Below, piece after piece: positions 2,511-13,217 of a stretch of DNA of 64,000 bases; the first letter of the stretch is position 1, and the number at the start of each line of letters is the position of its first letter. Source of the DNA: Nitrosopumilus sp. GTDB taxonomy: Archaea > Thermoproteota > Nitrososphaeria > Nitrososphaerales > Nitrosopumilaceae. The stretch lies in the NCBI GenBank assembly GCA_965238275.1, contig OZ250186.1, positions 640,001-704,000 of the forward strand, in the 5' to 3' direction. Below the pieces are notes generated by a model, which was not told where the DNA came from, ran no database searches, and saw only the letters and a program-made list of their open reading frames with translations. The position numbers and the translations under genes are program-made.

Positions 2511-2578
2511 ATTCTGTCCGTGCCATACTGGTTCCTGCCGGATGTACAGACTGGCACCTGTCTGATTCATAGTTCCTA

Positions 2579-2830
2579 TAGCGGCGAGCAAAAGTTTGTG
2601 CAAACAGATCTCTCTGTAGCGTGTCCTGGTGCTCTTTCCGGCGCTCTGTCAGACCTTCCAATATTGTCGTCGTTGTCGGGTCCAAGCCGACCTGTCGAAT
2701 TGTTCATTCCAGAACCATCCGATCCGTGATCCTCGCGCCTTGTGACGACCTCGACACCTGCAATGGTGCCTCCACGATTCCCGTGGGCTTGGCCGCCAGT
2801 CTCCTCCGTATGGAGACAGTCATTATCCAA
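2579..2830 (-). ncRNA. Putative omegaRNA/reRNA scaffold overlapping the tnpB 3' tail
   Basis: Low-complexity ~80-aa tail after RuvC-III; hairpins 2799-2804/2812-2817, 2772-2776/2782-2786, 2675-2679/2687-2691, 2604-2608/2613-2617; canonical position for a TnpB guide RNA. Confidence 0.55.
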
Positions 2831-3115
2831 AATGTTTTTTGCCGCGTTCTTGTCGGCATGGTGGCACCATCCGCATGAGACGCAGACAAATGATTCGCCG
2901 TTTCTGGACTTTTTGTCCACTATCCCGCAGGCAGCGCATCTCTGGCTTGTATGTGCGGATTCCACGCGTTTTGTAATTCCGCCCCTCTTTTTCATCTGCC
3001 ATTCAACTTGGCTCCGAAACTCGCCCATTCTGGAATAGGCCATCTCGCGGTTCAACCCCGTCTTTGGGGCGGCCCCGTTGGATCTCCTCATCCTGGTCAA
3101 ATCCAGGTCTTCCAG

Positions 3116-3205
3116 AGACGTAATCCGTAATTAGTCGTTAGGCACAAAGTGGGAATAGATGCTAGGCACGAAATGACCCAAAACTGCCTATTACGGATTA
3201 TGTCT
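3116..3205. mobile_element. 90-bp MITE, copy 1
   Basis: 16-bp TIR AGACRTAATCCGTAAT; CAG duplicated at 3113-15 and 3206-08; identical inverted copy at 12695-12784. Confidence 0.92.
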
Positions 3206-4168
3206 CAGGAACAATACGGACAGTCCTTTTGTTATCCGCCTGGCAATGTCGGCCTCGTTGTGTTTTTGCCTGTTTGATATCTTTTTCAATTCATGCGTTA
3301 TCCTGCGGCCGATCTCTTTCCACCTTCTGGAGCCTGGCTGGCATCTTGATCTAAATGATTTCAGCTGATCAATCCTGTCGCCGTCATGCCTCTTGCAGCC
3401 TCCGGGGACACTGTGCAGTTTTTCATTCCCATGCTCGTCTGCGACTGCCGCAAGGTGCCTGACTCCAAGATCCAGCCCTGCCTTGCATCCGCGGCCACCG
3501 CCTGTCGTGGGTTCGGGGTCTGGGACTTCTATCTGCAAATGCAGTTTGAATTCGCGATCACCATCCCTGGTCTTGCGCGTGACCTTGCCTGTGGTGTCAA
3601 TCATCTGGAATGACACGAGCCTGCCTTCTGGAACCCTCGTGCGTGGCCTTACCTCCCCGAGTCCGGGCAGAAATACGGTGCCGTCGTCCCGCAGTTTTGG
3701 CTTTCCGCGTGAATTCAGCGAGCGCAGCCTGGTTGTTTTCCTGCCGCGCCTCATCAGGCTGGACGGCTCGGTCCACCTGTTGTGCTTGTACGTTTTCTTT
3801 TTCCCCAGCTTGATCTGTCTCTTGCGCCAGATGCGCTTGTTGTGCTTGAGCCGGTTTGCCTTGCGGAATTTGACTGCCGCCTGGAAAGCATGTTTTGAGG
3901 CGGCCTCATGCATGCGGACGCTGCTGGCCAGGTTGAATTCCCTGCGCCATCCTGTTATCAGGTTGTTGACATCAAACTGTGTGATCCGTGAGTGTGCAAG
4001 TTTCATCATGATTGTCATGTCGTAAATGATGTCTGTTTCCCGGGAGCATTTCACGATCTTGCGTGACAGTTCCCGAGATTGTGTTATCTTGATGATTTTA
4101 CTGACAATCATACCTGTAGTTGGGATTTATTTTCTTAAAAAAGGTGCCCAAAAAATTGCACGAACTTT

Positions 4169-5938
4169 GTAATTGTTTCGCTTTTTGAAGTACCCCGGAT
4201 GGCCTAGCGGGCATCCATGGCGCCGGGAATAAATCTAATGATTTCGTGCTCGGGACGACAAAGCTAGACTGTCGTGATCTAAATGTGAGTGGGTGCTAGT
4301 TCCTTCGAGATAGCAAATGAAGAAACCAGCACACCAGACATGCTTGGAGGTGGAGGAATTTAAGGCAATACACGAGCCCTCCTTACACTTACCACAAATC
4401 CTTCCTGATGCCGGGGCGTGCATGAAACCAGAATGCAGGTGTTGTCGGTTCTGGACAAGGGTGCTTGGCGATACGATCGGCTTGACAGGCAAGATCTTGG
4501 AGGCTGCTGCCGCCGAAGTTGCAGGCAGGCCAGGCGCCAACTGCAAGGAGATCGAGGACCTGCAGGCACTCGTCTCATCCCTCACAGAGGACAACAAGAG
4601 GTACGCCAAGGCCAACAGGGAGCTTAACGCCAAGGCCAACAGGATCAACATCCCCACCGTGACCAAGAAAAAGGCAGGCCCAAGGAAGGCCGGCAGGCCC
4701 AAGGGGCAAAAACCCACCATCAACTGCAGGCCAAAACGCGTCGACCGCGTCGAGGAGATCGACTGCAAGGAATGTCCCGACTGTGGCAACGACAATCTTT
4801 CGGACGTGACTGACAGGTACGATCGCATCGTGACTGTCATGCGCGTCATACTGGAAAACGTCAGGTACGTCATCAAGCGGCGCTGGTGCCGCGGGTGCAA
4901 AAAACAGGTCTCTGGAAGGGTTCCCGGCGCGGCAAAACACGCGCGCCGTTCATCAAACTTTGATGCGGCCATGACGTCCCTGAACATGAACGGTTTGTCG
5001 CATGCCAGGGCCGCAGAATTTGGCAGCGACGCGTGGGGGCACAAAATCTCGCGCCCGTCTGCATACCGCGGCAAGATCAGGCAGGCAGAGCGCATGGCAC
5101 CGGAGCGTGATTCTGTAAGAAAGCGCGTGTTAGAGGCGCCACACCTGAACGCAGACGAATTCCACTGGCCGTTGGGCGGCAAACGCGGCTACGGGATAGT
5201 GGCCCTGGCAAAAGACGCCTGCCTCGTGGAGGTGACCGGCTCGTGGGGCATCAAGACGCTTTGCCACACACTCCCGGACTACAAGGGAACCATAACGCAG
5301 GACTCGTATTCAGGATGGCTCCACGTGGGATCGTGCCGCCAGATGTGCGTGTGGCACCAGGAACGCCTGGTGCAAAAGGACGTCCTGACCAACCCCAAAG
5401 GTGACGTTCCAAAGTTTCTGGACAGGCTGTCGGCAATCCACGATAAGATTTATCGCGCATCCAGAATCGAGGACGGGCACACGAGGATCGTCGCGGCCCA
5501 CTGCATAGACGCGGAGCTGCGCGGGCTGATGAACGAACCGTTTGCAGACGATGGGCACGGCACCATCGCCAGACACAAGAAGAGGAACCCCCGGGAGGGA
5601 TACTTTATGACCACCTGCCTGCACGTGGACGGCATCGAGCCGGACAACAACGCAGTGGAGAGGGTCAACCGGAGGTTCGTGGCCATAAGGAGCGACGGGG
5701 GCGGAAACCGCTCCCAGAAGGGCATGGATGCCAACTCGATCCTGTTCACGCTGCTGGCAACTGACAGGATCAACGCGAACAGTTTCTTTGATCATCTGGT
5801 CCGCTCGTCCTCTGGAGACAGTTGAGGCATCATCTGACGGCACGTATGGTGCATCACGGGAAAAAAGATTCCACGGCAAGGGAAAGGCTGCACCTGCTCC
5901 ACTGTTAGGCAGGCCACTTCAAAAAGCGAAACTGTTAC
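4169..5938 (+). mobile_element. IS66-family element, single-ORF (ISBst12-like) organisation
   Basis: TIRs GTAATTGTTTCGCTTTTTGAAG / GTAACAGTTTCGCTTTTTGAAG; 8-bp TSD CGAACTTT at 4161-68 and 5939-46. Confidence 0.93.
4317..5825 (+). CDS. IS66 family transposase
   Basis: Coiled coil, GRPKGQK, CPDCG...CRGC zinc finger, LNADE, TQDSY, DNNAVER DDE motifs. Confidence 0.92.
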   Translation: MKKPAHQTCLEVEEFKAIHEPSLHLPQILPDAGACMKPECRCCRFWTRVLGDTIGLTGKILEAAAAEVAGRPGANCKEIEDLQALVSSLTEDNKRYAKANRELNAKANRINIPTVTKKKAGPRKAGRPKGQKPTINCRPKRVDRVEEIDCKECPDCGNDNLSDVTDRYDRIVTVMRVILENVRYVIKRRWCRGCKKQVSGRVPGAAKHARRSSNFDAAMTSLNMNGLSHARAAEFGSDAWGHKISRPSAYRGKIRQAERMAPERDSVRKRVLEAPHLNADEFHWPLGGKRGYGIVALAKDACLVEVTGSWGIKTLCHTLPDYKGTITQDSYSGWLHVGSCRQMCVWHQERLVQKDVLTNPKGDVPKFLDRLSAIHDKIYRASRIEDGHTRIVAAHCIDAELRGLMNEPFADDGHGTIARHKKRNPREGYFMTTCLHVDGIEPDNNAVERVNRRFVAIRSDGGGNRSQKGMDANSILFTLLATDRINANSFFDHLVRSSSGDS

Positions 5939-6032
5939 CGAACTTTCGCTTTTCACTATAGAATGGCCGCCCTAGCTGCTCAGGATCGGCACTATCATAA
6001 ACTTCATATACATTTTCCCAACAGCATTGAGT

Positions 6033-6259: not shown

Positions 6260-6973
6260 TTGAATGTCAGACTGTCTGAGATATTTACATCCGTTGAAGG
6301 CGAAGGCATCCTTTACGGAACAAAGACGCTGTTTGTAAGGCTGGCCGGCTGTCCCTTTACGTGCTTTTACTGCGATACCCCTGAATCCCTTCCGCTTGAC
6401 TCGGGCACGGAGCACACAGTTGAGGAGGCATGCGGCATGATCGACTCAAGCCTGCAGAGAAAGACATTCAAGGTCAACTTTACCGGAGGCGATCCCCTGA
6501 TACAGCATCAGGCAGTGGCGCTTCTTGCACAGCATGTCCAGAAAAAAAAGATCCCCACCTATCTGGAGTCATCATGCTTTGATGTTGGCAGGTTCAACCA
6601 TGTTCTGCCATATTTTGACATAATAAAGATCGAGTTCAAGACAAGGGATTCAAATTTTGTAGACCCGCAACACCATGAACGGTTGACCGGCCATGCCATG
6701 AAATGCCTCGAGTCGGCTGCCAGAGGGGGCAAGACAACATACGTCAAGGTTGTGGCAAGCTCCAAGACAGACCCTGGTGATATTGAGGATCTGGCATCTG
6801 CAGTCTTTGGGGGCATGTCCGGACATGCCGTGTCCGGGTTTGTCATCCAGCCAACCTATGGCGTTTCTGAACCATCGCTGGAACGCCTGCTGGAACTGTA
6901 CGACGCCGTTGTTCCGTACTATGAGGATGTCCGGATAGTCCCGCAACTGCACAAGTTCATCGGGGCACCATAA
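6260..6973 (+). CDS. queE: 7-carboxy-7-deazaguanine synthase (radical SAM)
   Basis: EIFTSVEGEG, FVRLAGCPFTCFYCDT, C-terminal PQLHK. Confidence 0.92.
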   Translation: MNVRLSEIFTSVEGEGILYGTKTLFVRLAGCPFTCFYCDTPESLPLDSGTEHTVEEACGMIDSSLQRKTFKVNFTGGDPLIQHQAVALLAQHVQKKKIPTYLESSCFDVGRFNHVLPYFDIIKIEFKTRDSNFVDPQHHERLTGHAMKCLESAARGGKTTYVKVVASSKTDPGDIEDLASAVFGGMSGHAVSGFVIQPTYGVSEPSLERLLELYDAVVPYYEDVRIVPQLHKFIGAP

Positions 6974-12631: not shown

Positions 12632-12694
12632 GAGGCTGGTTCATACTCCCTGTTTATCATAGTATCGTTGTTCTCTTGATGGTCTGCAGGCCTG

Positions 12695-12784
12695 AGACAT
12701 AATCCGTAATAGGCAGTTTTGGGTCATTTCGTGCCTAGCATCTATTCCCACTTTGTGCCTAACGACTAATTACGGATTACGTCT
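12695..12784. mobile_element. 90-bp MITE, copy 2
   Basis: Exact reverse complement of 3116-3205; CTG duplicated at 12692-94 and 12785-87. Confidence 0.92.
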
Positions 12785-12786
12785 CT

Positions 12787-13217
12787 GGTTCTGTATCCTG
12801 ACAGGATACGCCGGCGGGATATGGATAACCATTATATGAACTGGATGCCGCCGTCACAGAAAAGCACAAGGATCAGATCAACTGTGTGCAATCATGGACA
12901 GGAATGAAGAAAAACCGGCCAAGCAGAAATCGCGGCTAAAGATAACGCACGCCCAAAACGATGCCAGGTACGTGGAGATGGGCAAGCTGCTCCACCTGCA
13001 AAAGGATCCCGGCTCTGACGGAGAACTGGATCGCATGAACGCAAACAAGAACGGGCGCCCATACCAGTACCCGGACGTGGCCGTGATGGCAATTGCAGGA
13101 ATACGCTCAATCTACGGCACCCTGTCGTACCGAATGTGTCAGGGGATGGCCATGTCGGCACTTGGCCAAGAGGACGCCCCAGACCACGTCACACTGTGGA
13201 GAAGGATACGCGGCATG
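12787..13217 (+). mobile_element. Truncated IS5-family remnant (left end plus 5' part of transposase)
   Basis: NKNGRPYQYPD...LSYRMCQG...APDHVTLWRRI resembles the N-terminus of the 39158-40318 transposase; end GGTTCTGTATCCT resembles its TIR ACTCTGTTTCCT. Confidence 0.7.

Follow-up and report, generated by a model that had tools for sequence, protein, structure and literature searches.

A tnpB element within IS630-type inverted repeats in Nitrosopumilus, probably mobilised in trans

The window considered in this work is a stretch of 64,000 nucleotides from the archaeon Nitrosopumilus sp. (GenBank assembly GCA_965238275.1, contig OZ250186.1, positions 640,001 to 704,000), whose genome, hereafter G000, is a single contig of 2.217 Mb that is 99.9% complete. 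Positions 2579-5958 of this window are occupied by a mobile element with a tnpB gene on the minus strand, which we interpret, with a probability of about 0.85, as a non-autonomous OMEGA element (from obligate mobile element-guided activity) of 1.5 kb: a tnpB gene and its omega-RNA packed within terminal inverted repeats (TIRs) of the IS630 type and moved in trans by a transposase of the IS630 family. The initial annotation of the window had already suggested a DDE-mobilised passenger of this kind, and the suggestion is now supported by the fixed ends of the element, by the duplication of its TA target, by an IS630 family with matching ends in the same genome (IS630-D) and by a copy that has moved with a broken tnpB.

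Copies, ends and the candidate transposase

Three mobile elements are nested in this region of the window. The outer one starts at 2579 with TAGCGGCGAGCAAAAGTTTGTGCAA, ends at 5958 with ...CGCTTTTCACTA and is flanked by TA at 2577-78 and 5959-60. Once an IS66-family insertion sequence (IS) and a miniature inverted-repeat transposable element (MITE) are subtracted, a unit of 1506 bp is left that holds tnpB alone, and removal of the IS together with one copy of its duplication gives back the TIR of the tnpB-5′ end, TAGTGAAAAGCGAAAGTTCGTGCAA. The two 25-bp ends of this copy agree at 19 of 25 positions, just as had been annotated together with the TA on both sides, and the ends of the family consensus at 21; at least 19 matches in 25 are expected by chance with a probability of ~1e-7. 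Only the sizes first proposed, ~1509 bp for the unit and 480 residues for its product, need a slight correction, as intact copies have 1506 bp and encode 481 residues.

The further copies expected from the initial annotation, about 20 in the genome, share their end positions. A search of G000 with window positions 2540-4200 gave 66 matches and a BLAST search with an intact copy of 1506 bp gave 35 segments; 20 copies are listed besides that of the window, and 18 were scored at both ends. Wherever an end is present, its first or last bases are identical across copies, and two copies have their 5′ end replaced. In these two (828591-830104 and 2146756-2148266) the outer part of the tnpB-5′ TIR is replaced alike (...GAACT|CCCATGTGTTACGG...) and the same sequence follows beyond, which may reflect another IS inserted at one and the same TIR position or a duplicated segment. 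Two solo TIR-like matches, at 1974603 and 1872997 of G000, were discarded as remnants without a partner end.

Concerning the target, TA is found on the tnpB-3′ side in 20 of 21 copies in G000; the remaining copy is bordered by CA at either end (TG..TG), so that a non-TA target was duplicated there. Empty alleles, which the initial annotation had also pointed to, were recovered for two copies, in one case from paralogous and in the other from orthologous sequence, each with a single dinucleotide. The flanks of copy 708710 have two paralogues with the sequence GCGACAGC-CA-GTACC where the filled site reads GCGACAGC-TA[element]TA-GTACC, and the orthologous site of copy 316711 in G169, another genome that carries the element, reads GATCC-TG-GTGGCC (93% flank identity) where the filled site reads GATCC-TA[element]TA-GTAGCC. 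Insertion therefore adds the element plus two bases, and the two kinds of empty site, taken together with the TG..TG copy, show that the 2-bp duplication is real. The site of the window copy itself has an empty orthologue in G017, a genome of the same genus, with 109 nt against 105 nt for the joined flanks, although its junction is too diverged to tell 2 from 4 bp.

A single TA at empty sites and TA on both sides of filled ones would also result from an IS607-type mechanism, in which crossing-over by a serine recombinase takes place at a TA core common to the ends and the target. Empty sites alone cannot separate this route from duplication, and IS607 elements commonly carry tnpB, as stated in passages of a 2026 review (PMC13565253). 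The flanking pair of the TG..TG copy, however, follows the target, and profile searches gave no match to the Resolvase domain (PF00239) of serine recombinases either in G000 or in four other carriers of related elements (0/4 for G017, G169, G056 and G213), with 12 of 14 controls positive. In addition, IS607 is described in the same passages (PMC13565253) as devoid of TIRs, whereas the ends of our element match each other at 19-21 of 25 positions and match those of an IS630 family, which leaves the IS607-type mechanism as highly improbable.

The other usual vehicle would be an ordinary IS200/IS605 element (IS1341-type) inserted 3′ of CTA, with the inverted repeat as an incidental feature. An invariant C-TA before the tnpB-5′ end (see below) does resemble an IS605 target or a transposon-adjacent motif (TAM), and tnpB-only derivatives of IS605 are very common in archaea according to the main text of Altae-Tran et al. 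2023 (PNAS, PMC10691335). We nevertheless consider this origin exceedingly improbable: the 25-bp inverted repeats, far beyond chance similarity, are held in common with IS630-D and are not dissimilar hairpin ends, Y1 transposases (PF01797) gave no match in G000 nor in the other four genomes (0/4, with 6 of 14 controls positive), and two base pairs are added on insertion. IS605 is not known to make a target duplication. Ends of the IS605 or IS607 type had been named from the start as the observation that would speak against a DDE-mobilised element, and neither a Y1 nor a serine transposase turned up in the five genomes.

Movement without an intact nuclease gene is documented by the copy at 614931-616532, whose 1592 nt, among them the MITE, show 100% identity to the window copy and lie between other flanks. 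An element with a broken tnpB has thus moved, which fits mobilisation in trans. The IS66-family insertion of the window copy is younger than the movement of this MITE-bearing twin.

With regard to the mobilising enzyme, the profile search of G000 gave 34 IS630-type DDE_3 matches, and the IS630 copies sort by their ends into four families with different TIRs (A, B, C and D). The TIRs of the tnpB element match those of IS630-D at 15-22 of 25 positions and those of families A, B and C at 4-14, so that IS630 elements with related repeats, as the initial annotation had anticipated, do exist in the same genomes. IS630-D elements have 1092-1100 bp and TA-flanked TIRs (TAGTGACGCGCAAAAGTT... and TAGTGGCGATCAAAAGTTCTTGCAA) and carry a transposase alone, without tnpB; two copies, D1 and D3, encode intact transposases of 337 aa with helix-turn-helix (HTH) and DDE_3 domains. 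Beyond ~26 nt the tnpB element and IS630-D have nothing in common, and their reading frames close in a comparable manner, with IS630-D transposases ending in ...CKNF* inside the TIR and TnpB ending in ...CTNFRSPL* in the same frame. Moreover, a remnant at 1082172-1082260 of G000 starts with 21 nt of exact tnpB-type 5′ TIR and keeps at nt 43-60 the subterminal motif of IS630-D1 (18/18). This chimera implies that an IS630-D variant with exactly tnpB-type ends once existed, and the remnant is, to judge from its sequence, probably a relic of the cognate autonomous IS630. We infer that a transposase of IS630-D, encoded elsewhere in the genome, would bind the 25-bp TIRs and cut and paste the element into TA dinucleotides, duplicating the TA.

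The distribution of the element points in the same direction. The TnpB clade is narrow: among 5.8 billion proteins searched, 23 clusters reach at least 44% identity, after which the values drop to ~30%. Two further subfamilies occur in G017 with ~56% and ~47% protein identity, in 6-7 and 9-10 copies, all of them with TA-flanked TIRs of the IS630-D type, and G169 holds one copy with 73% identity and the same ends; IS630-D is present in both genomes. Among 81 genomes of the genus, the tnpB clade is found in three, all of them within the eight that have an IS630-D-like gene (hypergeometric 7e-4, a value that is supportive only, as related genomes are not independent). In all 34 copies scored with both ends, tnpB stands alone within ~1.5 kb, without a transposase or a separate HTH gene. 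No relative of the TnpB alignment was found in viral contigs. A more distant locus in Dehalococcoidia (L109, 28% identity), with a frameshifted tnpB beside an IS66 transposase, was set aside: it is a single copy, and consequently its ends cannot be defined.

Two side observations concern the IS630 elements of G000 themselves. Copies of family A (near 85k, 566k, 889k and 1462k) lie in the palindrome TGCA-TA-TGCA, a target much longer than the usual CTAG. IS630-D1 (1873220-1874360, locus L064) lies inside a (GTA)n microsatellite, a repeat that offers TA in a G-TA-G context.

The nuclease and its predicted RNA and target motif

Intact copies, with at least 12 intact ORFs (open reading frames) in G000, encode a protein of 481 aa in which the RuvC residues D215, E304 (nearly invariant) and D390, together with the zinc-finger cysteines C362, C365, C380 and C383, are conserved in 15 of 15 aligned homologues. 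Among proteins of solved structure, an AI-designed TnpB-like nuclease and the TnpB of ISDra2 come closest in sequence. An AlphaFold model (predicted local distance difference test, pLDDT, of 67.7) has as best fold match the same ISDra2 TnpB (8h1j, E 4.5e-15), followed by Cas12f; the Fanzor2 of Mimivirus comes at rank 15, and no title with Fanzor1 figures among the 23 sequence matches or the 50 fold matches listed. To judge from sequence and modelled fold, the protein is a TnpB and not a Fanzor, nearest to ISDra2 TnpB and Cas12f, and it looks functional. The term Fanzor1-like, which the initial annotation had applied to the whole element, holds for the packaging and not for the protein.

The C-terminal tail is a different matter. 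Where the ORF overlaps the RNA described below there is no excess at the third codon position, unlike in the core, and residues 403-479 are predicted as disordered (pLDDT <50), which argues that the tail is conserved as RNA and not as protein. In the window copy the tnpB frame does pass through the TIR and is closed by a TAG composed of the TA and the flanking G, as had been noticed from the outset. A stop supplied by the flank was considered as a functional feature and rejected: the TA of the tnpB-3′ end is followed by G in 9 of 18 copies in G000 and by A (TAA) in 2, with the frame open into the flank in the other 7, the stop of the two G017 subfamilies lies ~33 nt inside the element end, and the tail is unconstrained.

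Eight sequences from four subfamilies share a fold of ten helices in the last ~240 nt of the element, the final helix lying inside the TIR. Compensatory changes are found at 22 of 56 pairs, and 96.2% of the cells are paired; sliding the partners by 1-3 columns lowers this value to 30-48%, and the observed score was not reached in any of 500 shuffles. The corresponding region of the window (~2579-2817, minus strand) is identical to that of an intact copy at 255 of 260 positions. Three element loci matched no Rfam family at E values up to 1, and the RNA therefore falls outside the curated families. This covarying RNA at the tnpB 3′ end is likely the omega-RNA. As a separate observation, contigs from an RNA library (run X1) break at window positions 2544, 2687 and 2778 with A- or T-rich loose ends, which may be either artefacts of assembly at points of divergence between copies or RNA ends with tails within the predicted omega-RNA; the contigs cannot tell which.

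A clear asymmetry was found in the flanks. Read on the tnpB strand, 34 of 34 insertions carry a C immediately ahead of the 5′ TA (18 in G000, 6 and 9 in the two subfamilies of G017 and 1 in G169), compared with 16 of 35 at the mirror position of the tnpB-3′ ends (Fisher 1e-7) and with 18 of 27 IS630-D ends (9/14 and 9/13; Fisher 3e-4). At sites with C on one side only, the orientation is 18:0 in the TnpB elements and 3:4 in IS630-D (p 0.003), and the positions upstream of C-TA are without preference. The IS630-D transposase prefers the palindrome CTAG, and a factor tied to the orientation of tnpB demands the 5′ C. This C occupies the position that an IS605-type TAM has with respect to a guide taken from the 3′ flank. 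Given this invariant and orientation-specific C-TA, and given that in Fanzors the 5′ target-site duplication (TSD) belongs to the TAM while the 3′ TSD lies in the RNA scaffold, as reported in passages of PMC13565253, we predict a TAM of 5′-CTA with a guide that would start from the TA or directly behind it. The guide predicted for the window copy is GGAACTATGAATCAGACA..., in agreement with the initial annotation. The TAM originally predicted, similar to (T)CTA, keeps its C-TA, invariant on the 5′ side, and loses its T, which is not conserved.

Altogether, these features can be joined in the following model. Transcription of tnpB would start from a short A/T-rich leader and continue into the flank, which would act as the guide, and the last ~240 nt, in which the unconstrained ORF tail overlaps and the TIR is contained, would fold into the omega-RNA scaffold. 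The complex of TnpB and RNA would then recognise its own site when unoccupied, as 5′-C-TA followed by the 3′ flank, and a cut at the empty site followed by recombination with an occupied copy would have the element reinstalled or retained. Such homing would be the role that TnpB has for IS605, and the arrangement of the TSD in the TAM would be the one reported for Fanzors.

It is also conceivable, although unlikely, that IS630-D moves the element while TnpB and its RNA are passive cargo, or act in regulation or defence, the 5′ C being then a bias of the transposase or of insertion. IS630-D itself favours C-TA-G, as seen at the ends counted above, a tnpB-null copy has moved, and the benefit of homing for a cut-and-paste element is debated. 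However, homologues with 46-97% protein identity keep the catalytic triad, the zinc finger and the RNA structure, and the C bias is specific of one orientation, something that a palindromic preference of the transposase does not predict, with the C exactly at the IS605-type TAM position relative to the guide. The C-TA asymmetry is difficult to account for if the nuclease has no part in determining the insertions that persist.

Several points weigh against an element mobilised by IS630-D and equipped with a homing nuclease. Copies of IS630-D with TIRs identical to those of the tnpB element are missing from G000, where the best one reaches 21/25, and, as the sole exact TIR match is a decayed remnant, the true partner may be extinct in this genome. 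The baseline for the flanks of IS630-D is small, with 14 elements from three related genomes, and the covariation is based on eight sequences from four lineages. Cut-and-paste excision already leaves a double-strand break, which makes the benefit of homing less obvious than for IS605, as argued in passages of PMC13565253. Finally, metatranscriptome contigs (four runs from two studies) cover the MITE-free element sequence, and one of them includes 16 nt of flank beyond the 3′ end of copy 1724459, but these are assembled contigs that show neither transcription, strand nor ends, nor whether they come from RNA or DNA, and we give them no weight.

Known systems and a second type of packaging

The initial annotation held that prokaryotic tnpB normally rides on IS200/IS605 or IS607 elements, a view that is outdated, as TnpBs linked to IS630 have been published (PMC10691335, main text) and the kind of element is therefore known. 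In that main text, Altae-Tran et al. describe a DDE-6 branch of TnpB linked to a DDE transposase of the IS630 family and to an HTH protein encoded separately, with symmetric ends and with inverted repeats in each of the six groups associated with DDE transposases, and suggest that a connection to Fanzors is possible; they also report solo TnpBs with the ends of transposase-bearing systems, read as moved in trans. Our element resembles DDE-6 in having a prokaryotic TnpB within symmetric ends of the IS630 family and a tnpB at 250 bp or less from an end. According to the main-text description, what sets DDE-6 apart is that it co-encodes transposase and HTH protein, whereas none of the copies scored here does; moreover, the partner IS630-D carries no tnpB and the host is an archaeon of the Nitrosopumilaceae. 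The main text of PMC10691335 makes 0 mentions of Thaumarch, Nitroso or TSD, a count that covers the main text and not the supplements, which may list some of these loci. Our literature search found no paper on TnpB in Nitrosopumilus, and nothing closer for TnpB with IS630, DDE or TSD. What may be new is the archaeal lineage, the strict hitch-hiking of a tnpB that is never with a transposase, the demonstrated TA duplication and the orientation-specific C-TA.

In eukaryotes, Fanzor1 was reportedly described by Bao and Jurka in 2013 within transposons of the Tc1/mariner type. The likeness to our element lies in a nuclease of the TnpB family inside TIRs with a TA duplication and in an RNA that runs through the TIR, to which we would add, as an inference in our case, the 5′ TSD within the TAM and the 3′ TSD next to the RNA scaffold; the differences are a TnpB of ordinary size (481 aa), a canonical D/E/D triad and a prokaryotic host. 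In the IS200/IS605 systems, as passages of the preprint by Meers et al. 2023 describe, the RNA is placed at the tnpB 3′ end, the right flank provides the guide and the TAM stands beside the left end. The element shares with them, and with ISDra2 in particular, the TnpB-like fold, would share this layout and a complex that targets the empty site, and differs in the lack of a Y1 TnpA, in its inverted-repeat ends, in the 2-bp duplication and in a mobilising enzyme that would be of the DDE type. The IS630 family has TIRs, duplicates TA and prefers CTAG, and some of its ORFs are closed by the target, as in IS870. The TIRs, the TA duplication, the CTAG preference and a frame that passes through the TIR are found in our element as well, which differs from IS630 in having no transposase gene and in carrying as cargo an RNA-guided nuclease.

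DDE-OMEGA pairings are rare in prokaryotes according to passages of PMC13565253, which ask what a homing nuclease offers to a transposon that leaves double-strand breaks. The present element is a natural case for this question, with a large number of recent copies, with both partners recognisable within the same small genomes and with an RNA backed by covariation, and it also offers a compact TnpB of 481 aa with a short predicted TAM. It brings archaea, and a form that does nothing but hitch-hike, into a known class with little documentation so far, and does not overturn current understanding.

A second type of packaging, not of the IS630 kind but within the same archaeal family, was observed in a sister TnpB clade (28-39% identity), with 14 copies in a genome labelled as Cenarchaeum (G056; loci L099-L113 and L126) and one in G213 (L123:1543-2892). 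These elements of 1.4-2.7 kb contain only tnpB and have 12-nt TIRs (GGGAATTATATA), a motif with 28 occurrences in G056 compared with 0 for the reversed control. Direct repeats of 8 bp are exact in 9 of the 14 copies of G056 and agree at 7 of 8 positions in two more and in the G213 copy. Both genomes have IS1595 DDE genes, and the only lead to a partner is an IS1595-type zinc-ribbon remnant beside one solo TIR (L131; E 3.7e-5, below the Pfam cut-off); a search for such a partner found no intact copy with matching paired TIRs.

This second combination of TIRs and TSD suggests that the lineage was captured by DDE transposons more than once. A wider conjecture, which we hold only tentatively, is that in these archaea this TnpB lineage has turned into a dedicated passenger of DDE cut-and-paste transposons with at least two origins (IS630 with TA and, in the sister clade, unrelated 12-bp TIRs with 8-bp duplications), in which the TAM of the IS630 form would be tuned to the C-TA target of the transposase and the nuclease would reinstall or retain an element moved by a different protein. 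If true, the Fanzor1/mariner arrangement would have a tractable model in prokaryotes, which may also be the intermediate type from which such arrangements arise.

Anatomy and surroundings of the window copy

The features of the window copy are collected in Table 1. The MITE cuts tnpB into two ORFs on the minus strand, 3191-4111 and 2576-3100, which are matched by the Pfam families OrfB_IS605 (E 5.4e-11) and Cas12f1-like TNB (E 1.6e-17), respectively. With a MITE in the gene and an IS66-family IS in the 5′ TIR, this copy is a dead end, although its RNA part is intact. From its composition, the A/T-rich leader at 4112-4168 may contain the promoter.

Table 1. Features of the tnpB element and of the insertions nested in it, in window coordinates
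Feature	Position	Strand	Basis
Predicted guide template	2555..2576	-	Flank read outward on the tnpB strand (GGAACTATGAATCAGACAGG...); geometry only, directly 3′ of RNA scaffold and TA
TA target-site duplication, tnpB-3′ side	2577..2578		TA in 20/21 copies of G000; empty sites with one dinucleotide
25-bp TIR, tnpB-3′ end	2579..2603		End position common to all copies; 21/25 against the 3′ TIR of IS630-D1
Predicted omega-RNA scaffold, ~240 nt, 10 helices	2579..2817	-	Covariation; in overlap with the tail of tnpB, its end within the TIR
tnpB C-terminal piece: RuvC-II/III, C4 zinc finger, tail	2576..3100	-	ORF and Pfam Cas12f1-like_TNB
93-bp MITE in tnpB	3116..3208		22-nt inverted repeats; 3-bp duplication CAG at 3113-15 and 3209-11
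tnpB N-terminal piece: WED/REC, RuvC-I; ATG at 4111	3212..4111	-	ORF, Pfam OrfB_IS605, intact 481-aa homologue
68-nt leader with A/T-rich TATA-like stretch, and inner 13 nt of the tnpB-5′ TIR (4156-4168)	4112..4168	-	Direct reading
IS66-family IS with a single ORF (transposase 4317-5825), inside the TIR	4169..5938	+	23-nt TIRs; DDE_Tnp_IS66 E 3.5e-14
Outer 12 nt of the tnpB-5′ TIR	5947..5958		Joined to 4156-4168 gives the 25-bp TIR seen unbroken in other copies
TA duplication, tnpB-5′ side, and G	5959..5961		tnpB strand reads 5′-CTA, the predicted TAM

The IS66-family IS has 1770 bp and is bordered by an 8-bp duplication, CGAACTTT, at 4161-68 and 5939-46. Eight further copies with 95-100% identity are found in the genome, three of them 100% identical to that of the window, which indicates recent activity of this IS. 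The MITE belongs to a family with ends AGACGTAATCCGTAAT... that gives 13 BLAST matches in the genome, with 3-bp direct-repeat duplications CAG, CTG, AAG and CAT; a further member lies in the window at 12691-12788 (652691-652788 of G000). MITEs of this family have struck tnpB elements at least twice and at different positions, once in the window copy and its twin and once in copy 1821561, and MITE-free contigs connect 3114 directly to 3209.

As for the surroundings, the element sits in a spacer of 105 nt between an ORF at 1647-2510, with a weak Snf7/CdvB-like match (E 0.003, below the Pfam cut-off), and a radical-SAM (QueE-like) gene at 6260-6973. G017 has the same neighbours in synteny, with an empty spacer between them.

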